From a virus (taxonomy: Duplodnaviria > Caudoviricetes): a stretch of 55,324 nucleotides of DNA. The translations under genes were made by a program, and so were the position numbers. The stretch spans positions 1 to 55,324 of IMG/VR virus record IMGVR_UViG_3300031673_000055, one strand, 5' to 3'. Below are positions 3,163-55,324 of the stretch, piece after piece (the stretch's first letter is position 1; each line of letters begins with the position of its first letter). The notes beneath the pieces are model-generated. The model saw only the letters and a program-made list of their open reading frames with translations. It ran no database searches and was not told the origin of the DNA.

Positions 3163-4386
3163 TTACCCTTTAACGTTCACAATTTGTCTTAGCCTATATT
3201 TTATACTCACTAAATCATCTTGTGCCGCCATAACCGCACCAATATCTTTATATGCGGCAGGGCTTTCATCTAATACATCCACGTCAAGCCTCGCCTCTAT
3301 ACCTCGCATGGCATTTTTATGCTGCTCAAGGCTTATAAGCTTTTTAGCTTCACCACGCGACATAACCCTGCCAGCACCGTGTGAACATGAGCAAAAGGAT
3401 TCTTTGTTACCCAGCCCCTCAACTATAAAAGAGCCAGTACCCATTGAGCCGGGTATTATTCCTAAATCTCCTCTTCTTGCTCGTACAGCACCTTTTCTTG
3501 TTACAAGTACGTTATCATTAAAGTGATTTTCACGCTCAACATAATTATGGTGACAATTAACAGCCATATCGCTTGTTATTATTTCTTTAGTGTGACTTTG
3601 CAGAACCTTTAAAACCCTATCCATCATTATTTTTCTGTTTTCTAGTGCGTAATTTTGCGCCCAGCTTACAGCTTCAACATAATCATTGAATATTTCTGTA
3701 TGTTCAACTAAATAAGATAAATCCTTATCAGGTAAATATTGAGTTATATGGTAGCGTTCCATTTCTTCTTTTGCTTTTTCAATGAAATACATTCCAATTC
3801 TATTACCCACACCCCTTGACCCCGAATGAAGCATAATCCATACGGAGTCGTTTTCATCAAGGCATATCTCAATAAAATGGTTACCAGTTCCTAAAGTTCC
3901 TAAATGGCTAATGTTATTGAAGGCTCTAGCTTTTGGGTGTTTATCGGTTATCTTGTTATATTGGGAGTCTATTGCGCCCCATTTACTTATAACATCTTCT
4001 GGCAAGTCGCCACCCCAGCCACCTTTATCGTTTTTACCACCATTATCAGTACGACCATGAGGTACAGCAGCTTCAATGTCGCTTCTAACGTTAGATAGAT
4101 TTTCCGGTAAATCATGAGAGGTTAAATTGGTTTTTACAGCCATCATGCCACAACCAATATCAACACCCACTGCCGCAGGTATTATCGCCCCTTTTGTAGC
4201 TATAACAGAACCAACAGTAGCCCCCATCCCCCAATGGACATCAGGCATCCCAGCAACATGTTTATGTATAAACGGCATCTTTGCAACGTTGCGTAATTGC
4301 TGCATAGCGTTTTCATCAAACCCTTGGTGGCTATCCCATAATTTTAAAGGTGCGCCCTCAGTTTGATAATAGTTAAATTTCTTCAT
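3163..4386 (-). CDS. rtcB: RtcB-family RNA ligase (2',3'-cyclic phosphate/5'-OH)
   Basis: Motifs PDVH, GVDIGCGM, GTGNHFIE, HSGSRG, HHNY, RKGA, PGSMG, SCSHGAGR and DESPAAYK are all intact; start moved to ATG 4386 (GAGGGGG RBS). Confidence 0.96.
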   Translation of the reverse strand: MKKFNYYQTEGAPLKLWDSHQGFDENAMQQLRNVAKMPFIHKHVAGMPDVHWGMGATVGSVIATKGAIIPAAVGVDIGCGMMAVKTNLTSHDLPENLSNVRSDIEAAVPHGRTDNGGKNDKGGWGGDLPEDVISKWGAIDSQYNKITDKHPKARAFNNISHLGTLGTGNHFIEICLDENDSVWIMLHSGSRGVGNRIGMYFIEKAKEEMERYHITQYLPDKDLSYLVEHTEIFNDYVEAVSWAQNYALENRKIMMDRVLKVLQSHTKEIITSDMAVNCHHNYVERENHFNDNVLVTRKGAVRARRGDLGIIPGSMGTGSFIVEGLGNKESFCSCSHGAGRVMSRGEAKKLISLEQHKNAMRGIEARLDVDVLDESPAAYKDIGAVMAAQDDLVSIKYRLRQIVNVKG

Positions 4387-4469
4387 AAATCCCCCTCTGC
4401 CATGTAAAATTGCTTGCCGTTGCCCGTGATTATCGCCGCTTTTAGCGGGTCTGTGTAGTATAGGCTCAT
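4383..4469 (-). CDS. 28-aa ORF translationally coupled to rtcB (MSLYYTDPLKAAIITGNGKQFYMAEGDL)
   Basis: ATGA overlaps at both ends; translated by hand. Confidence 0.45.
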   Translation of the reverse strand: MSLYYTDPLKAAIITGNGKQFYMAEGDL

Positions 4470-4642
4470 TGTTTTTCCTCACCTTCTGGTAATTTATTTA
4501 AAAATTCATCGCTAAATGATAGCGAATTCTTAAAATCCTTTATTTGCTTCATAACTTCTAGTGAATAAACGTCTTTTATTTTGCAAGCCCCGCCAAAATT
4601 ATGTTTCGGGATTGTGCCGATATTTCTATCTTTTTTACTCAT
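4466..4642 (-). CDS. Hypothetical protein (58 aa)
   Basis: AAGGAG RBS; open frame MSKKDRNIG...; below the ORF-track cutoff. Confidence 0.55.
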   Translation of the reverse strand: MSKKDRNIGTIPKHNFGGACKIKDVYSLEVMKQIKDFKNSLSFSDEFLNKLPEGEEKQ

Positions 4643-5330: not shown

Positions 5331-5467
5331 TATTCGCAATCCTCATAATCATCATCATAAGGCCCATCATTATCCGCAAAACATGATAGACATTCTTTGC
5401 GTTGTTGCTCAAGATAATTTAATTCGCAATCACATGACCAACAAATATTTTCAATGTTATTGTGCAT
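5330..5467 (-). CDS. 45-aa CxxC/CxxC protein with acidic tail
   Basis: MHNNIENICWSC...CLSC..DDDYEDCE; TAATG-coupled on both sides. Confidence 0.55.
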   Translation of the reverse strand: MHNNIENICWSCDCELNYLEQQRKECLSCFADNDGPYDDDYEDCE

Positions 5468-6054
5468 TATTTAGTACTCCATCCATTTTCATTTAATCTA
5501 AACATTAATTTAAATTCTTTGTGCATATAATCACTTGCTAACATAATCTTATTATTAAAATTATCAAGTATATATTGCTTGCCATCAATATCAACCGCTA
5601 ATACAGCATGTTGCATATTATCGTGATTAGGCAACCAACCAACCCATATATTAAGCTGATTAGCTTTAAATCCAGCCTCACGGGCAGCGTAATACCAACT
5701 TATAGCATAATCTTCGCAATCTCCGCCATTGTTAGCTTTAAACTCATTAGGAGTAGCCCAATAATCAAAATTAACATTAGGTTTAAACCAAAAAGATTGA
5801 TAATTATAACTATCTGATTTGTAAATTCCTCTTACACTTTCAAAAACATTTACTAAAGTTTCATAATTTACTTTTGCATTACCTTCTTTTATAGGTTGCC
5901 TTTCTAAAACTTTATGCCATTTTTCAATTAATTTTGTGCCATTTTTTAAAGGAATTACATAATCAGTTACATTTTTATTTATATCAACTTGTGCAAATAC
6001 ACCCTTTGGTAAACATAATAAACACAAACAAACTACAAATATTCTTAAAATCAT
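5467..6054 (-). CDS. Transglutaminase-like cysteine peptidase (BTLCP/peptidase C93, LapG-like) with signal peptide
   Basis: DYWATP.EF...GGDCEDYA, HAVL and YILDN give the Cys-His-Asp triad; hydrophobic N-terminus. Confidence 0.88.
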   Translation of the reverse strand: MILRIFVVCLCLLCLPKGVFAQVDINKNVTDYVIPLKNGTKLIEKWHKVLERQPIKEGNAKVNYETLVNVFESVRGIYKSDSYNYQSFWFKPNVNFDYWATPNEFKANNGGDCEDYAISWYYAAREAGFKANQLNIWVGWLPNHDNMQHAVLAVDIDGKQYILDNFNNKIMLASDYMHKEFKLMFRLNENGWSTK

Positions 6055-19079: not shown

Positions 19080-19339
19080 TGTTTTTGCGCGGTACTTTAC
19101 AACAATTTGAAAGCTGGCATGAAACTGCCAAAATATCAGAAAATATACCTCAAGAAGGTAAAGTAGGATATTTAAAAGGCAAGCTTGCAATAAATAGGCA
19201 AAAAACTATAAATTATAGCGATGCAATTAAACATCCTATTAATGAAAATGATTATATATGGCTATGCGGCAATTATTGCACAAATGAAAATTTAGATTTA
19301 GAACAAGTAAAATTATTAGGCTGGTTTAACGATGAGTAA
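19079..19339 (+). CDS. Hypothetical protein (possible chaperone of the preceding protein)
   Basis: TAATG coupling to the upstream gene. Confidence 0.55.
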   Translation: MFLRGTLQQFESWHETAKISENIPQEGKVGYLKGKLAINRQKTINYSDAIKHPINENDYIWLCGNYCTNENLDLEQVKLLGWFNDE

Positions 19340-19646
19340 TGACATACCGGAGCGGGTTGCGATTGTGGAACAGATAGCAGCAAGCGCACATAAGCGAATA
19401 GATAGCAATGACATTGAAATAAAGGGCTTGCGTGATTCCCGCCATGGACATGCAAATATGCTGCAACGTCATGATGGGTTAATAGCGCAGCATACTGATA
19501 TTTTAAAAAGTCAAAATGAAACACTTAAGACAATGTCGGATGTTGTTGTATCCATAAAAGCTATGGTAGTTATGGCTATATTTTTAGGCACAATCTTTTT
19601 AACTTTTTGCGGATTTGTCGGAAACGAAATATTCAAATGGTGGTAA
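19332..19646 (+). CDS. Coiled-coil protein with C-terminal TM helix (XhlA/holin-like)
   Basis: SAHKRID motif, single C-terminal TM helix, precedes the endolysin. Confidence 0.6.
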   Translation: MSNDIPERVAIVEQIAASAHKRIDSNDIEIKGLRDSRHGHANMLQRHDGLIAQHTDILKSQNETLKTMSDVVVSIKAMVVMAIFLGTIFLTFCGFVGNEIFKWW

Positions 19647-19648
19647 AT

Positions 19649-20026
19649 ATGAATTGGGATTTATACAAAAATTTTAGTAAATCAGAATTTGATTGCAAAC
19701 ATACAGGCAAAAATGAAATGCGCCCTGAATTTATGCAAGTTTTACAAGAAATAAGAATAGCATATAACAAACCAATGGTTATCAATTCAGGTTATAGAGA
19801 TAAGACACATCCTAAAGAAGCTAAAAAATCTACAACAGGAAGTCATCCTTTAGGCTGTGCTGCTGACATATCAATTGAAGGTGTAAATGCAATGCAGCTT
19901 ATTAATATAGCTTACAATATGGGTATAAGGCGCATAGGAGTTAATCAAAAGGGCGGTGGTAGATTTATTCATTTAGACATTGCTGATAAACTACACGGCT
20001 TCCCTCAATCAATATGGAGTTATTAA
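19649..20026 (+). CDS. Endolysin, peptidase M15 (Zn D-Ala-D-Ala peptidase fold)
   Basis: NFSKSEFDC, INSGYR, GSH..GCAADI and FIHLD motifs. Confidence 0.9.
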   Translation: MNWDLYKNFSKSEFDCKHTGKNEMRPEFMQVLQEIRIAYNKPMVINSGYRDKTHPKEAKKSTTGSHPLGCAADISIEGVNAMQLINIAYNMGIRRIGVNQKGGGRFIHLDIADKLHGFPQSIWSY

Positions 20027-20027
20027 T

Positions 20028-20492
20028 ATGCTATCAGTTGCATTATCATTATTACAATACGCCCCTGCTGCTGTAAAATTAATAGCAGGTGATAAAGCCG
20101 GTAATGTTGCAGAAAAAATTGTAAATATTGCAGAAAAAATAACAGGCAAAAAAGGCAATGAAGCTGTTGAAGCTATAAAGGAAAATCCACAGTTCGCTTT
20201 AGATTTTGAAAAATCAATTATGGATTATGAAATTGAATTGCAAAGGTTAGCCATAGAGGATAGAAAAAGCGCGAGGGAACACGACAAAGCAACTTATGGC
20301 ATAATGTTTGTAGATGTAATCCGTGGACTTGTGCGCCCAATTATTGCCTTATATTTCGCGTGGTTAATAAGTCATTGTTTGATAAAAGGCATTGAATTAT
20401 CTATTGAGCAAATGGGATTACTTGCCGCCCCCGTTATATACTATTTTGGCGAACGTGGATTCTTTAAAAATAAATCTACAAAGGATAAATAA
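20028..20492 (+). CDS. Holin (GTA 3TM-holin-like)
   Basis: DRKSARE, VRPII and YYFGERG motifs; adjacent to the endolysin. Confidence 0.8.
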   Translation: MLSVALSLLQYAPAAVKLIAGDKAGNVAEKIVNIAEKITGKKGNEAVEAIKENPQFALDFEKSIMDYEIELQRLAIEDRKSAREHDKATYGIMFVDVIRGLVRPIIALYFAWLISHCLIKGIELSIEQMGLLAAPVIYYFGERGFFKNKSTKDK

Positions 20493-31277: not shown

Positions 31278-31337
31278 GAACAGCGACCCCATAACATGAC
31301 CTCTGGGATAGTGAGCTTTTCCCATGGTGCGCTGTTC
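31278..31337 (-). promoter_or_regulatory. Intergenic structured hairpin upstream of an RBS
   Basis: GAACAGCG/CGCTGTTC 8-bp arms with internal CCAT/ATGG and GGGA/TCCC pairings. Confidence 0.55.
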
Positions 31338-31344
31338 ATAAACT

Positions 31345-31932
31345 TTATTCCTCTTTTTGAAAATCTGCGGCTATGCTCTGTACAATCTCTGGGTTGATAG
31401 CAACCATAGAGTTGTTACTGCCATAAACCTTAGCCCTTATTTTTTCTGGCAGTGGGATTACAGCTTCCACATCTTCAACATATTTACACACATTCAGGAA
31501 TGAGGTGTATTCACGCTCCTTTTTGCGGGTAAATTCTTTTAGTTCGTTAATTTTATCTTCAAGGGTTTCTATCAAATCCTTTAACTCTGGAGTGCCTACA
31601 AATACCTAGCCTATATAACAACCGTTGTTGTATGCGATTTCCATCAAGCCGCAATCTTCTTGATATTCATACGGAACATTAAAACCGAATACACCGCCAC
31701 CCTCTGGAAGGGAAAATTTAAGGCAGTAATCGTACCTTACACATTCATACTTGCGTAGGATTTCCATGTCACTCGCTGGAAATTCCTTAATTAAAATCTC
31801 ATTAGAAGCCCCACAAACAGCTTTTATAGCAGAAAGCACATCGTTTTTTTCTGTGGAATTGTTTATTTTTTCTTGTTTCATCCACTTTAGGATACACTCA
31901 CGGGTGCTTTGCTTTAATCTGGTTTTAGCCAT
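31345..31932 (-). pseudogene. Single 195-codon gene interrupted by one in-frame TAG (read-through or nonsense allele); loosely Nmad5-like
   Basis: ORFs 31606..31932 and 31345..31575 are in the same frame: ...GCYIG*VFVGTPELKDLIETL...; the second part has no well-spaced RBS. Confidence 0.75.
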
Positions 31933-31978
31933 GTTAGCTCCTTTCTGTTAAATAATAATCGTTCGGGTATTAAAGATT

Positions 31979-32280
31979 AAAAAAGTACAGGCAGGGGCGT
32001 TACTCCCTCGCTAGCTTTCCCCAACTATGACGTGTGCGCGTTGCTTAAAACCGATTTAGCTGACTTCCTCCTTTGAAGAAATTGCCCTTACGGTTACGTC
32101 CCGGAACTATCCGACTTGCCTGTACTCCAATGCGATTGCTGATTAGGCGCGGGAATCACCCCATCGCATCTAACCCTTTCGGGTATTTACGCCGCTCATT
32201 GACCCTAGTGGAGCGGCACACCGTATAGGTACTAACTAGCTTTCCCTACATACCAATTTTGAGCATTGTTAAGATGCTTT
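31979..32280 (-). ncRNA. Structured non-coding RNA/leader containing a tRNA-like cloverleaf (31984-32126)
   Basis: GC-rich, no ORF, multiple stems; AGTACAGGCA/TGCCTGTACT closing helix and a T-arm-like GAGGG-AGTAACG-CCCCT. Confidence 0.65.
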
Positions 32281-32299
32281 GGTGGTCTATCTTTTTAAC

Positions 32300-32881
32300 T
32301 TATCTAGCCCATGAGGGGCTTGCATTTTGCTGCTGTCCTGCATTATTATATTGCTGTTGTTGTGCAGGAGCTTGATTATATTGCCCTTGTGCAACTGCAT
32401 TATTTACAGGTTGATTATTATTATTACTAATTGGCTTTAATCCTTTAAAACGAACATTTTTCCTTGGATTGCCGTTATCATCCAATATAAAATCTCCTGT
32501 TTGCTTATTAATTTGATTCGCAACAATAAATAATCCTTCAAACGGTTTAAAATACATTTTTTCATTAAATTCAAAACGTTTATTAGCTTGATTTACTTCA
32601 GTTATAACTGACGCAATGTCTATAATTGCCTCAATCGCTATACGCCTAGCAGTATCATTGCTACTGCCAGTTAAGTAATGAATTTGCACTTTTTGGCCTT
32701 TTAAAGTGCCATCTAAACATTCAAAAGTAATAATAAATTTAGGCTCTTTATTATTAGTTTCCCCTGGTTCAGCATTACAAACATGATAAATTCCAGGGTA
32801 ATTTCCAACTTCTGGAATTGGTATCCCTGATGAATTTGGAGTGTAATTTGTAAATTCCGAACCTGTAGCATCTATATACAT
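32300..32881 (-). CDS. Putative ssDNA-binding protein (DUF669-like)
   Basis: Downstream of the AAA_24 gene; Q/N-rich linker and PSWAR tail. Confidence 0.7.
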   Translation of the reverse strand: MYIDATGSEFTNYTPNSSGIPIPEVGNYPGIYHVCNAEPGETNNKEPKFIITFECLDGTLKGQKVQIHYLTGSSNDTARRIAIEAIIDIASVITEVNQANKRFEFNEKMYFKPFEGLFIVANQINKQTGDFILDDNGNPRKNVRFKGLKPISNNNNQPVNNAVAQGQYNQAPAQQQQYNNAGQQQNASPSWAR

Positions 32882-32919
32882 AGTAATTTCCTTTGTTAAA
32901 TTTTAAAAATAGTTAATAA

Positions 32920-33684
32920 TTAATTAGTGGGATGGGAAGTTCCAATTACTTTTACAAAATCATTCCAGCCGTTAGAATATGTTATATTAATTTCCTCTGG
33001 CAAATGTAAATTGTTTTTTGCATTTATACCTTTTGCGCGCCTTGTTATTAAATATCTTTCCTCAGTTGGAATAACGCGCCCCTTTTGGTCTAAATGTTCT
33101 TTTTTCTGCAAATAAACTTTAGCTTCAACTAAATCAGATATTTTAGCACCTAATTTATCATGAACTCTTAAATCTTGCATAATATATTCATCCTTATCAG
33201 CCTCTTTCTGCTTAGTTGGCAAACATTGCGCCCCTATAACAATAGGCATGTTATGCTTTTTTCGTATTGCGTCAAGTAAAGGATATACATCGCTTAAAAA
33301 CATATTAGCTGCTAAATCGTAACCCTTATTAAAGTTCAGGGCTTTGCAATGATCATCATTAATAACTTTAACTTTGAAAGTTTCGCAAATTTTATCATGT
33401 ATGCAACGTTCAATCCAATCAAGCGTATCAATCGCAATTAAACCGTATTCTAATTTATCTTGATTTAATAAATATTGTAAAGCTTCTATAAATTCATCTA
33501 AATTTTCAGGGCGATAAACTGAAGCTTGCTTTTCGCTTTTGAACTTTTTTTCAGCGTCTATAACAAAAGGGTTTTTTGCGCTTGCTATAAAACTTGATTT
33601 CCCGTGGCCGTTAGGGGCAAAAACCATAACTAAAGGGGCTTCTTCGGGCGGGGTGGTCATTATATTATTTGGTGAAAATACCAT
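32920..33684 (-). CDS. AAA_24/Sak4-like ATPase (recombination)
   Basis: APNGHGKSS, IDAE, IDTLDWIE, KGY and AKN motifs. Confidence 0.85.
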   Translation of the reverse strand: MVFSPNNIMTTPPEEAPLVMVFAPNGHGKSSFIASAKNPFVIDAEKKFKSEKQASVYRPENLDEFIEALQYLLNQDKLEYGLIAIDTLDWIERCIHDKICETFKVKVINDDHCKALNFNKGYDLAANMFLSDVYPLLDAIRKKHNMPIVIGAQCLPTKQKEADKDEYIMQDLRVHDKLGAKISDLVEAKVYLQKKEHLDQKGRVIPTEERYLITRRAKGINAKNNLHLPEEINITYSNGWNDFVKVIGTSHPTN

Positions 33685-37844: not shown

Positions 37845-38225
37845 AATGGTGTGTATTTTTAAAAACTACACTCTGGATTTTAAAAACGCTTATAATTCAA
37901 TAACTTAAAAATGGCGTGTAGTCAGTGTGTAGTGTCAAACTACACGCCATTTTAAGGAAAAACCTTTATAAAACAAACACTTATAAAACAGTGTGTAGAA
38001 AATGTAGATATACACCCCTTAGAAAATTTTAGGGGTATCCCCCTACATTTTATACACACTGTTTTTTTATGTCTATATATGTATATATATAATATATATA
38101 TTATTATTATATATTAATAACTTATATATAGTATTCTTAATTAGGGGTGTAACATTTTTGTATAAAATGGCGTGTAGTGCAAAACTACAATTTAACTACA
38201 CGGTGCTACACACTGTTTTTTTATT
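37845..38225. repeat. Nested inverted/direct GTGTAG-CTACAC repeats around an AT-rich core; putative replication origin
   Basis: 15-bp IR 37908-37922/37939-37953; 23-bp IR with 1 mismatch 37985-38007/38043-38065; further copies at 38164-38219. Confidence 0.7.
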
Positions 38226-38353
38226 TGATTTTTTTATTTATACAAAATGTATAAAATAGTTTTTTATTTTTATTTTTTAAAAATAATTATTGATTAATAT
38301 AATAGAAGTTGTTATAAGTCGGTTATTGTAGTTTTTAATTAAGGGGATTTAAT

Positions 38354-52277: not shown

Positions 52278-52814
52278 TCATTCAACTATAAATGAATTGT
52301 CATGTAATTGCTCTTGTAAAATTGCCAATCCCAACTCATACCCCTTTGGCTTATCGCCCATAATTTCTTCTACAATTTTCTTAGCTTTGCGTTCTAATTT
52401 TAACGTAAAATCCACACAATCTAAATCAATTTCTATTCTTTCTTTTTGTAGTTTTTCAACATCCCTAAGGGGCATAGATTTCAATAATTCGTGATATTTC
52501 CTTATAATATTACCAGAGGTTTCTATATGATTTTCCAATTTATCATCAGTTAAATTATCATCTAAAAAATCAAAATCTTTCATTACATCTAAAGTAAAAT
52601 TTTGATTATCTTGAATTTCTTCTAATTTACTTAATTTATCTTTATTATTATTTAAACGATTTTCATTTTCAACAAAAAACCATTCAAATTTTTTTTTTAA
52701 CTTTGCAAATTCTGATTCTATAAGTTTATTTTCTTTGTATATAAAATCTATTACAAATAACAATTCATCTTTAGTGCCTCTAAATCTGTATTTTTCAAAA
52801 ATATCATTTGTCAT
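52278..52814 (-). CDS. Hypothetical coiled-coil protein, last gene of the leftward cassette
   Basis: AAGGA RBS; 178-aa ORF. Confidence 0.6.
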   Translation of the reverse strand: MTNDIFEKYRFRGTKDELLFVIDFIYKENKLIESEFAKLKKKFEWFFVENENRLNNNKDKLSKLEEIQDNQNFTLDVMKDFDFLDDNLTDDKLENHIETSGNIIRKYHELLKSMPLRDVEKLQKERIEIDLDCVDFTLKLERKAKKIVEEIMGDKPKGYELGLAILQEQLHDNSFIVE

Positions 52815-55324
52815 TTTTCGTTCCTTTTTTTTGCCTAATCAATAATATTTTCTGAATTAGTCCATAGGATAATTGATTTATTGCCTATATAAGCCCTTAC
52901 TTTTGATATACCCCATGAGTTACTTAAAACAGTTGCAGGAATATCAGGTTTTGTAACTATACACAAAGTATTACTAACTAAAAAATTAATTGCATAATCA
53001 TCTTTATCATTAATTGCATCTAGTAATTGATTGAAATAATTTTCAGATATACATGCAGGATAACCACCAACTGTTACTTTTGCTTGAGCTGATACATTTA
53101 TTCCTAAAGTTAAAGCAACGCATATTATTAATGTTTTAATTTTATTCATTTTTTTATTCTCCTGTTAGTTATTTAATATTGAGCTTTGCAAGATTTAGAG
53201 CAGAATTTACCCCATCCTCTTTTTATATCAGCTTTTTTAGCTACAAAACCGCATTTGCAATTTTTACATTCAACTAATTTCTTATTGCTAGGTAAATTAT
53301 CGTAAAAGCCATTAGCTTTATTTTGTAAATATTGTTTTCTTTCAGCTTCATGTATTTTGTGCCTTGCGCTACAAAAATTTCTACCATCTAAAAACTCTAT
53401 ATCTTTATACCTACCCATTAAATACCTAATTCATTTAAAATATTATCAATTTCTTTTTTACTAATTGGCTTTGCTTTACCAACTTTATAACCAGCTCTAC
53501 GCAATTGCAAAATTACATTATGAGCATCAAAATTAAATACCGATGCAACGCCATTCATTTTAACCGCCATTTCACGCCATGCAGTTTCACCCTCTTTAGA
53601 TTGAGCTATAAATCTTGTAAACATTTTATCTTGAGTATAAGTTAAATCCATAATCTTATTCCTTTATTTTAAATCCCTACACCCTTTATATAATAGAACT
53701 TATTATACGTCAATACCTATTTTACAAATAATTGCATTTTCTTGTAAATAATATATAATTATTCTATGTTTAAAGTAACTCCTGACCCAAATAATAGGCA
53801 AGTTGAATTCCAATTAACCCACTTGGAAGAAATAAACGTGCGCGGAATAAGGCAGGCTTTCTACGCAATTGGTGCTATTGCTAAAAGAACAATAAATGAA
53901 AATGTTTTAAAACGCCCACGTTCGGGACAAGTTTATAAATATAAAGGCAGGCGGCATCGTGCATCGGTTGAAGGTGAAAGTTTTGCTAATAGAAGCGGTG
54001 ACGCTAGAAAAACTATTGGATTTAGTGTAAAAGGCGCGCAGGAATTAGAATTTGGTTTTAGGCAAAACGAAAAAACTATGTATACAAAAATATTAGAAGA
54101 AAAACGTAATAGGCCAACTTTACGCATTGCATCAAAAGAAACACAAGGTAAGGCTGTTACTATTATGGAAAATGAACTTAAAAAAGCGCATGATGAGGGT
54201 TATAGATAATGATAAAAGCATCGACTATAGCAGGGCAATTGCAAAACGCACTACCAACACAAACAAGCTTGTTTAGCAATCCTGATATTACTATAAGCAG
54301 CTTAACGCGTTCAGGAACTACTATAACCGCTGTAACCGCAACGCCGCATGGATTAGCTACTAATAATTATATAACTATTTTAAATGCCAAAACTCCAATA
54401 AGTATAAGTTCTATTACTTCAATACCTAAGCCAGGGATAAGCGCGACTGGCTCAATAGTAACCGTTACAACGGCAACGCCTCATGATTTTACGGAAGGTT
54501 TTGATTTTGTAGCTGAAATTGCAGGGGCTAATCAATCTGCATATAATGGCAGTTTTGCAATAACGGACGTTCTAAATAGGCGAACTTTTAAATATGAAAT
54601 AGATAGTCAACCAGTTACCCCTGCAACTGGTACTATCGTATTATTAAATAATGATGCAACTGGCTACAATGGCAGGCATCAAATAACAGTTACAAATAAT
54701 ACAACGTTTACCTATCAAACTACATTAACCCCTAATAGTCCAGCTCAAGGCACTCCAATTTTAAGAAGTGGTGTAAGAGTTGCAAGGGCTATCTCATGGG
54801 AACGCGCAATGGAAGCTTATACAAAACAGAATACAAGCGCGCTATGGGCTTTTGTGGTACTTGGCGATATATCAATATCAAAAAGCCGTAGGGATAGTAC
54901 GGATGCTATACAAACTTTAACTTATGGCGATGAATATCGCACAAGGCTTATATTGCCGTTCTCAGTTTATATTTACGTTCCATGCTCAAATGAAATAAGT
55001 GGCGGTGCTGCCCGTGATTTAATAGAGGATGTAAGGGTTGCACTTTATAAATCAATGTTGCGTACTAGGTTTACACCTGTATTAGAAGAAGCTGCAACTT
55101 ATGTAACTGTTGCCGCAGGTGATAGATTTATTCAATATAACAATGCGTATTACATTCATGAATTTATGTTTGAAACTGTTTGTGATATAACTATTGGTGA
55201 TACAGTTGCACCTACTGAAAATGTTGCGTTCCGTGATTTCTCATTGATATATATTGACCCTATAACAGATGATGGGGATAATATTATCATGCAAACGCTT
55301 GATGTTAGTTTAGATGATGTTCCG
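52809..55324. repeat. Direct terminal repeat, copy 2 (duplicates the genes of 1-2516; last gene cut by the window end)
   Basis: ORFs 52835..53149, 53173..53418, 53418..53651 and 53766..54209 duplicate those at the start. Confidence 0.97.

Follow-up and report, generated by a model that had tools for sequence, protein, structure and literature searches.

A folded non-coding cassette shared by two otherwise unrelated soil phages resembles a cloverleaf but is not a tRNA

Introduction

The elbow of a tRNA is formed by a D-loop of 7-11 nucleotides (nt) that contains GG and by a T-loop of the sequence UUCRANY. YrlA and the other bacterial Y RNAs, which belong to rsr-rtcB operons, carry a tRNA-shaped module, and T4-type phages carry mobile regulatory cassettes, the promoter-early stem-loops. 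Here we describe an RNA element that invites comparison with each of these, a folded non-coding cassette in the tailed phage (Caudoviricetes) represented by IMG/VR virus record IMGVR_UViG_3300031673_000055, whose complete stretch of 55,324 nt we refer to as the window. The original prediction, made from the letters of the window, had described the central domain of this cassette as a tRNA-like cloverleaf with an enlarged anticodon-position arm and had proposed that it mimics a tRNA. We find that the domain is not a tRNA, that it belongs to a larger block shared with a second phage, and that it may tentatively be read as a self-terminating accessory non-coding RNA acting in trans.

A further described RNA, the abiF motif, has a degenerate counterpart in the same non-coding gap. 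Published work identifies it as the RNA that serves as antitoxin to AbiF, a HEPN toxin related to the ancestors of Cas13 (bioRxiv 10.1101/2025.04.15.648962; PMC12737573; PMC12165695). Antitoxin RNAs of this kind include RCd22 of Clostridioides difficile, which carries two such motifs (bioRxiv 10.1101/2025.04.15.648962), and AbiFr (PMC12737573).

Results

Two otherwise unrelated soil phages share the cassette

The window contains a non-coding gap of 367 nt (31933-32299) between two open reading frames (ORFs) of 193 and 108 amino acids (aa), both on the minus strand, and the RNA lies in sense orientation within a recombination/replication operon. Using a 23-letter word from the cloverleaf, we found a second phage contig in IMG/VR (L124, 7117 nt, 45% guanine plus cytosine (GC)), in which positions 95-348 correspond to positions 32187-31934 of the window (Table 1). 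The two soil phages, otherwise unrelated, share this cassette nearly letter for letter. Contigs of four public sequencing runs were also aligned to window positions 31300-33000, and one contig each from the soil runs X4 (7083 nt) and X5 (5213 nt) resembles the window at 31934-32187 and nowhere else, with 8-9 differences and unlike flanks on both sides. The cassette comprises two hairpins, a five-way-junction domain, a tract of six U residues (U6) and a 45-nt A/T-rich spacer with the ribosome-binding site AAAGGAG (31938-31944); its 3' border falls 2 nt short of the ATG of the next ORF, with spacer and ribosome-binding site included in both phages. The structured RNA unit within the block measures about 215 nt.

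Elsewhere, L124 and the window have in common a lysis-type cassette (98.1% identity over 783 nt, plus an adjoining 246 nt at 75%); the remaining similarity is one chance-level match of 45 nt (82%). The lysis-type cassette, an M15 peptidase with small neighbouring ORFs, occupies 19248-20272 in the window and 5406-6691 in L124. It may have been exchanged recently between the two phages and, as the only other recently exchanged DNA, hints that they may share a host. In L124 the block starts about 10 nt past an ORF with an acidic tail; in the PolA relatives of L124, the gene at that upstream position encodes an Enc34-type single-stranded DNA (ssDNA)-binding protein (PF10991, E 1.6e-42 for the counterpart in L126). 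Downstream of the L124 block follow an 88-aa ORF, unlike the 108-aa ORF of the window, then PolA, a 99-aa ORF and a 465-aa helicase-like ORF, the last two read from their translations only, without a family search. The abiF-type hairpin that stands upstream of the cassette in the window is absent from L124.

A 10-nt direct repeat, AATACCCGAA, is present on the minus strand at 32178-32187, exactly at the 5' edge of the block, and at 31962-31971, where about 0.03 would be expected in 254 nt. We considered a transposon-like unit and rejected it, as no terminal inverted repeats were seen by eye and both phages share sequence past the second repeat. A repeated regulatory cassette was likewise dismissed, there being no second copy in the genome.

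The cassette is absent from relatives of both phages. On the side of the window, L002 and L003, which encode relatives (~57%) of the protein upstream of the gap, have a plain hairpin followed by a T-run at that place; a metagenome scan for further relatives of this protein returned, among the matches listed, the same contigs as the viral scan and one more. On the side of L124, eight PolA relatives (54-58% identity) have small ORFs filling the stretch before PolA and no gap of cassette size; a whole SSB-type (ssDNA-binding) ORF is seen there in six of the eight listed, while the remaining two are truncated by the end of their contig. A covariance model (R1) built from the two copies (window 31972-32190 and L124:92-310) recovers only its own two sources among 15 sources; it matches 0 of 10 PolA-relative loci of L124 and has no match in L002, L003 and L123, in 100 abiF loci, 6 word-match loci and 5 further whole records. 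The gap is without a match among GenBank phages and PLSDB plasmids. An 18-mer from the cloverleaf occurs in L124 and in six unrelated places, a 23-mer in L124 only. Because relatives of both phages are without it, the cassette is, as far as these comparisons of sequence reach, an acquired accessory element that has come to occupy the same relative place in two lineages.

A 21-mer from the cloverleaf, sought in species genomes, occurs at one place in Nitrosovibrio sp. Nv4; this was examined and set aside as a chance word, since BLAST gives no match to the 366-nt gap and the flanks share only the 21-mer. With this word alone in common and the gap unmatched by BLAST, there is no evidence that the cassette is of host origin.

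The cassette folds into a five-way junction on the sense strand

The helices listed in the original prediction exist on the minus strand, and RNAfold reproduces nearly all of them in its minimum-energy structure for 31984-32126(-). The closing helix, AGUACAGGC/GCCUGUACU, has nine Watson-Crick or G.U pairs, to which two G.U pairs between 32127-32128 and 31982-31983 may be added, giving 9-11 pairs. It encloses a D-position hairpin (CGGA-UAGU-UCCG) of five pairs, one of them U.G, with a 4-nt loop; a long arm composed of GACGU/ACGUC, AACCG/CGGUU and an inner hairpin UUUCUUC...GAGGAAG; a short variable-position hairpin with a G/A-rich loop; and a final hairpin directly adjoining the 3' strand of the closing helix. 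Short linkers join the helices. Three details had to be revised. The variable-position hairpin is present, with its register shifted by two in RNAfold (GUUGG/CUAGC), and the alignment of the two copies fits either register. At the T-position a hairpin forms as well, but not with the stem GAGGG/CCCCT as originally drawn; this stem would include an A.C mismatch, the predicted pairing is AGGG/CCCU with two inner pairs, and a clean 7-nt loop is therefore not upheld. Finally, 31984-32126 does fold as a domain but is too short for the element, whose conserved block is 31934-32187.

On the 5' side of the junction, the first hairpin (ACCC-GAAA-GGGU, 32173-32184) has the loop GAAA here and AAAA in L124, and the second (32129-32170) consists of an 8-pair stem, GAUGCGAU/AUCGCAUU, with an inner hairpin and an asymmetric loop; at its base a change from G.U to G-C between the copies keeps the pair. 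Two words recur within the gap on the minus strand. One, of 11 nt, is found in the leader (32236-32246) and in a short hairpin of the cloverleaf (32011-32021); the other, resembling UCAGC-N-AAUCG, lies on the 3' side of two large asymmetric arms (32133-32142 and 32052-32063). They may be traces of an internal duplication or paired protein-binding sites.

Table 1. Features in and around the non-coding gap (window coordinates)
Feature	Position	Strand	Basis or remark
Upstream gene, 193 aa, DUF669-like	32300..32881	-	Language-model and fold look-alikes; between Sak4-like annealase and RNA
Degenerate abiF-type hairpin (Rfam RF03085)	32252..32282	-	23.4 bits against a gathering score of 37, E 0.059
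7-pair hairpin GCCGCUC-N13-GAGCGGC	32191..32217	-	Between abiF-type hairpin and cassette; outside shared block
Horizontally shared cassette	31934..32187	-	96.457% identity over 254 nt to L124:95-348
Two 5' hairpins of cassette	32129..32184	-	Consensus fold of window and L124; fold of larger unit
Five-way-junction (cloverleaf) domain	31984..32126	-	Minimum-free-energy fold; RNAalifold on window and L124 gives same helices; 132/132 cells paired
U6 tract directly continuing closing helix	31979..31984	-	Sequence and RNAalifold
Downstream gene, 108 aa, no known family	31606..31932	-	PHROG and Pfam searched

In order to compare the fold with chance, we used 200 dinucleotide shuffles. The minimum free energy of 31984-32126(-) is -51.2 kcal/mol against -36.4 +/- 3.6 kcal/mol for the shuffles (z -4.10), none of which folds as well (0/200), so that the domain passes the comparison with shuffled controls. 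The 213-nt unit reaches z -3.0 on the minus strand (1/200 shuffles as good) vs z -1.6 on the plus strand (11/200), and 10 of the 66 predicted pairs are G.U pairs, valid on the sense strand only. This minus-strand bias, in combination with the G.U pairs, assigns the structure to the sense strand. It also bears on the idea of an element acting as DNA, such as a replication origin or a single-strand initiation site, which would suit a structured sequence in a replication module with an A/T-rich stretch next to it; both the G.U pairs and the strand bias argue for RNA, or for one strand alone, and 37845-38353, with its iterons and inverted repeats, is the better origin candidate. We consider a role as a DNA element hardly credible.

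The two copies differ at nine positions in 254 nt, of which five lie in stems, one in the loop of the first hairpin (GAAA/AAAA), one in the junction and two in the 3' spacer. All five stem substitutions keep a standard pair, and three of them turn G.U into G-C or A-U. A third variant, a 226-nt contig from run X7, shows 7 listed differences in 97 coding bases vs 2 in 128 non-coding bases; that its non-coding part is less variable than the adjacent coding part is suggestive at most. The cassette could also be foreign non-coding DNA with no function of its own, which hitch-hiked in a recent recombination during co-infection and folds well by chance. Its identity of 96.5%, no higher than that of the lysis-type cassette, would agree with this, as would the lack of significant covariation, a GC content resembling that of the other phage and not of this one, and the restriction to two contexts. 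Neutral DNA of this kind would, however, not be expected to fold strand-specifically with z -3 to -4, to have its edges exactly at gene borders in two unrelated genomes, to vary less than the adjacent coding part as in X7, or to sit at the same relative position in two lineages whose relatives are without it, and we regard it as improbable.

The cloverleaf is not a tRNA

The original prediction had judged the domain not to be a canonical tRNA, and this is borne out: ARAGORN at default thresholds calls none, with and without introns. Lowering the thresholds to 50-80% produces three calls, none of which fits the cloverleaf, two being on the opposite strand and one upstream in the leader. The element is also uncatalogued, as had been supposed, with no Rfam match at the gathering score; a search of 371 nt against 4227 families at E<=10 gives no tRNA, tmRNA, Y-RNA-type or riboswitch match, the abiF hairpin being the sole match. 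The absence of a TTCGA loop and of CCA had been noted correctly, and the U-run at the 3' end is confirmed as U6.

In its architecture the domain is reminiscent of a class II tRNA: one junction joins five helices whose order is that of the tRNA, the linkers between them are short, and the final hairpin stacks directly on the 3' strand of the closing helix. The likeness does not extend to the parts that define a tRNA. Instead of a 7-pair acceptor stem the closing helix has 9-11 pairs, and U6 stands in place of the discriminator and CCA. The D-position loop UAGU is only 4 nt long and contains no GG, while the T-position loop is AGUAACGC, or AAC if the inner pairs form, and in neither case includes UUCRA. 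At the anticodon position, the 5-pair helix GACGU/ACGUC encloses a branched arm of ~60-70 nt, and none of the hairpins has a 7-nt anticodon-like loop.

The proposal that had accompanied the cloverleaf was that it mimics a tRNA, serving as a decoy for anticodon nucleases, as an RNase P-processed regulator or as a substrate of the RNA ligase RtcB. Beyond the class II order of its helices and the final hairpin abutting the closing helix, this could draw on the genome, which encodes RtcB (3163-4482, minus strand; PF01139, E 1.6e-126; phrog_1075, E 1.3e-144) and no tRNA or tmRNA gene in the whole record according to ARAGORN, and on the abiF-type hairpins of other phages, which typically lead tRNAs or tRNA-like RNAs. 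The RtcB context is thereby confirmed as far as the presence of the gene goes; as a link to the RNA it is circumstantial, the gene being at least 25 kb away, and the L124 block is without the abiF hairpin. Neither ARAGORN at default settings nor Rfam at E<=10 gives a tRNA-type match, the 4-nt D-position loop, the missing T-loop consensus, the missing 7-nt anticodon-like loop and the missing CCA all speak against mimicry, and the tRNA-like RNAs behind other abiF hairpins keep GGTTCGA-type T-loops, which the cassette does not. We consider tRNA mimicry very unlikely. The comparison with Y RNAs leads to a similar picture: the cassette is non-coding, has a tRNA-shaped module and comes from a genome that encodes RtcB, but it has no Rfam Y-type match, no Ro-type gene is found among the annotated ORFs, and RtcB is encoded in another place and not in the same operon. 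The cloverleaf is not a tRNA, and the label of tRNA mimic is to be dropped until a tRNA-specific activity is shown.

The 3' end may be a terminator with an oversized loop

The 3' part of the domain, a stem of 9-11 pairs followed by U6, may or may not amount to an intrinsic terminator. The consensus terminator scan does not call this site, because the enclosed 'loop' is a multibranch domain of 125 nt. The main rival to an RNA acting in trans starts from here. The cassette could be cis-acting operon punctuation, that is, a terminator and 3'-end protector for the message of the upstream ssDNA-binding protein, combined with a spacer that restarts the next gene. In this case one would expect the closing helix to abut U6, as it does, and a simpler terminator in relatives, as seen in L002 and L003, where a plain hairpin and T-run follow the homologous gene at the same place; in both phages the spacer and ribosome-binding site belong to the block, which stops 2 nt short of the ATG and follows a putative ssDNA-binding gene (to judge from the PF10991 counterpart in L126 and the acidic tail of the L124 ORF), and no promoter of its own was detected. 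On the other hand, a 125-nt five-way junction far exceeds the needs of a terminator and escapes the terminator scan, the block has moved without either of its flanking genes, and a candidate restart promoter (TTTAAT-N18-TATTAT) fails the criteria of the scan. Weighing these points, we hold a purely cis-acting cassette to be somewhat unlikely.

Mobile punctuation of this sort is exemplified by plain terminators and by the promoter-early stem-loops of T4-type phages. Like these, the cassette is non-coding, sits at a gene border, combines a stem and T-run with restart signals and is exchanged between phages; unlike these, it is much larger, branched and single-copy, with no called promoter.

The same arrangement, a sense-oriented multi-helix junction whose P1-like helix borders a U tract and which precedes a ribosome-binding site, is also what a ligand- or protein-sensing leader would look like, a riboswitch-like attenuator governing how far transcription reads through into the replication genes downstream. 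However, none of the riboswitch families in Rfam gives a match at the gathering score or at E<=10, no alternative anti-terminator pairing was found, and the closing helix of 9-11 pairs looks constitutively stable. Moreover, the downstream gene differs between the two phages, and two contexts are few compared with the usually widespread riboswitch classes. We give such an attenuator little credence.

An abiF-type hairpin stands upstream in the window and precedes stable RNAs in other phages

The loop core of the abiF-type hairpin (32258-32279) matches all 19 of 19 fixed letters of the pattern, where 0.00 are expected in 100 shuffles even at 2 mismatches. Its outer stem has 3-4 pairs vs the family's 6, with three pairs deleted per side, which accounts for a bit score below the gathering score. 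Taken over its full 112 nt, the leader is no more stably folded than its shuffles (z -0.41), and no Abi_2 protein (PF07751) is encoded in the whole window record. The hairpin is therefore like the abiF RNA in its conserved loop, letter for letter, and unlike it in being a leader hairpin only, with a sub-gathering score, a shortened stem, a single and not a tandem motif, and no Abi_2 gene.

Scanning IMG/VR for the abiF loop pattern, we obtained at least 117 viral loci (L004-L120). Among those listed, and with respect to the same strand, 23 have a tRNA (21) or a permuted tmRNA (2) within ~30 nt downstream, 8 have a tRNA within 330 nt downstream of the hairpin, 29 have a T-run straight after it and look stand-alone, and 11 contain a T-loop-like word without an ARAGORN call, with 44 others and 2 too short to judge. 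Sixteen of the 17 loci scanned are above the Rfam gathering score. The spacing can be tight: a tRNA lies 4-8 nt past the hairpin in L016, L019 and L033, and a permuted tmRNA 5 nt past it in L010. Several of the loci without a tRNA fold into tRNA-like RNAs that are acceptor-closed and have a T-loop, or into other small RNAs with a T-run at the end. In L021, L024 and L027 the hairpin is followed by acceptor-closed multi-branch RNAs with two T-arm-like hairpins (GGTTCGA-type loops) and no ARAGORN call, which look like an unusual class of tRNA-like phage RNAs. L052 has a second, diverged abiF-like hairpin after the first, a tandem like that reported for RCd22 of C. difficile.

An Abi_2 protein is encoded in 4 of the 117 listed motif-bearing records (2/50, 1/50 and 1/17), and in 1 of 21 among records at least 90% complete; the other 113 of 117 are without it. 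In cultured phages the motif is found in 39 GenBank records, 5 from Synechococcus and 34 from Mycobacterium phages, some phages being represented twice. The annotated abiF sRNA of Synechococcus phage S-CREM1 ends 4 nt before a tRNA-Gly; the accessible text of the S-CREM1 paper mentions the sRNA and not its link to the tRNA (PMC9964418). A link between abiF and tRNAs is not described in the accessible literature, supplements not covered; in particular, the main text of PMC5737381 does not contain 'abiF', while its supplement may describe the contexts of the motif. We also looked for a -10 box before the abiF hairpins and discarded it, as a position count over 105 distinct upstream stretches shows only AAnA ahead of the stem and no -10/-35 consensus.

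By analogy, the gap appears to fit a recurrent phage layout in which an abiF-type hairpin is followed by a structured stable RNA. As in the abiF-led small-RNA genes of other phages, a hairpin and a structured RNA on the same strand are followed by a T-run or the next RNA. Those RNAs differ in that they start 4-8 nt past the hairpin and are usually a tRNA, a permuted tmRNA or a T-loop RNA, whereas here the distance is ~65 nt and the RNA has no T-loop.

Genome and neighbouring genes

The last 2516 bases of the record (52809-55324) repeat its first 2516 with one mismatch, and the genome unit is therefore 52,808 bp; the record ends are either terminally redundant or circularly permuted. The genome, with a GC content of 33%, is that of a contractile-tailed, myovirus-like soil phage, in which PHROG and Pfam identify a tail sheath, baseplate, terminase, portal and major head protein. 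On the minus strand it has a replication/recombination block with primase, Sak4-like annealase, Cas4-type exonuclease, helicases, a sliding-clamp-like protein and thymidylate synthase. An ORF for a transglutaminase-like cysteine protease lies near rtcB (5467-6054; PF06035, E 2.7e-10). The largest non-coding gap, 37845-38353, is located beside the primase gene and contains three copies of a 15-nt iteron, several long inverted repeats and a TA-rich core, and no other windows in the genome fold as well as those it holds on either strand. The gap is likely a replication origin or a bidirectional terminator region.

The 193-aa protein encoded directly upstream of the gap has no PHROG or Pfam match, aligns to Enc34-type SSB with an hhalign probability of 0.3, and has an AF2 model with a pLDDT of 48. 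Its similarity to DUF669 phage proteins in the Atlas (0.93 by features; template-modelling score (TM) 0.53-0.59 by predicted structure) is a lead only. Because it is DUF669-like and adjoins the Sak4-like annealase, we take this lead to point to a putative ssDNA-binding partner. The one database relative of this protein, P0002, has 47% identity. The final 45 residues (32303-32437, minus strand) are identical in P0002 and the remainder is ~40% identical. This pattern suggests that the gene contains a mosaic junction shortly before the RNA gap, and that the P0002 gene is perhaps followed by the same RNA. No close relatives of the phage were found among viral contigs when sought via the flanking proteins.

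Discussion

In the reading that we tentatively prefer, the cassette is a self-terminating accessory non-coding RNA acting in trans. Its transcript would be stable and non-coding and would finish at the U tract; in this phage the upstream hairpin of the AbiF-antitoxin type would be part of the same transcript, and the RNA would affect a host factor in trans, with an accessory or counter-defence role specific to the host. This reading draws on the cassette being a compact folded unit with sharp borders that has moved without either neighbouring gene, on its having been acquired two times at one relative position, on the upstream hairpin, which in other phages precedes stable RNAs, and on a closing helix which, together with U6, can define a 3' end. 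That it would be host-specific is suggested by the lysis-type cassette, the only other DNA that the two phages have recently exchanged.

A number of observations weigh against this. Viral, metagenome and genome scans yield two genomic contexts only, and among the sequencing runs listed none is recorded as RNA. No sigma-70-type promoter is called upstream of the cassette in the window or in L124, and since the stretches upstream of abiF hairpins also show no -10/-35 consensus, a transcription start of its own is hypothetical. A cis element would equally well account for the inclusion of the next gene's spacer and ribosome-binding site in the block and for the plain terminator that relatives have at this place. 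The abiF-type hairpin is separated from the cassette by ~65 nt and the extra hairpin at 32191-32217, and the L124 copy is without it. As regards the structure, there is no double compensatory change between the two copies and covariation is weak: five random stem transitions would all keep pairing with a probability of 0.58^5 = 0.068, and the structure by which the substitutions are judged was derived from the same two sequences. Conservation may simply reflect recent transfer, since the 96.5% identity is no higher than the 98.1% of the lysis-type cassette. In a GC-corrected scan, 20 of 2760 windows of 143 nt (both strands) fold better than the domain, which retains a residual z of -2.66 and lies in the top 1%; the local GC peak of 0.53, tied for the highest in the genome (mean 0.33), may reflect foreign origin rather than structure, given that L124 has 45% GC.

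The observations on the cassette and on the abiF motif can be combined into a broader proposal, which we regard as speculative and, taken as a whole, rather improbable. The gap would be a counter-defence locus, in which an orphan mimic of the AbiF antitoxin is co-transcribed with a decoy RNA in a phage that carries RtcB. Orphan abiF hairpins would then be a widespread phage device that neutralises AbiF-type HEPN RNases or shields or marks the stable RNAs of the phage against them, and the tRNA or cloverleaf behind such a hairpin could also be the processing signal by which the hairpin is released.

Non-coding RNAs encoded by phages are poorly catalogued. The cassette is new as an RNA, having no match in Rfam, GenBank phages or plasmids, and its general kind is a known one, that of accessory non-coding elements carried by phages. 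Being compact, stable, strand-specific and moved between unrelated phages, it has the hallmarks of an accessory gene rather than of a neutral spacer, and it provides a defined RNA of 215 nt with exact borders that is ready for synthesis and testing. If the cloverleaf were only an elaborate terminator, the analysis would still remove a false lead to a tRNA mimic. The by-product of this work may matter more: among the matches listed, the abiF motif is common in phages without the toxin and stands ahead of tRNAs and tmRNAs. AbiF and its antitoxin motif have recently been tied to the origin of Cas13, according to the review PMC12737573. The occurrence of the motif without its toxin suggests either an RNA-based anti-defence or an unrecognised leader of the stable RNAs of phages.

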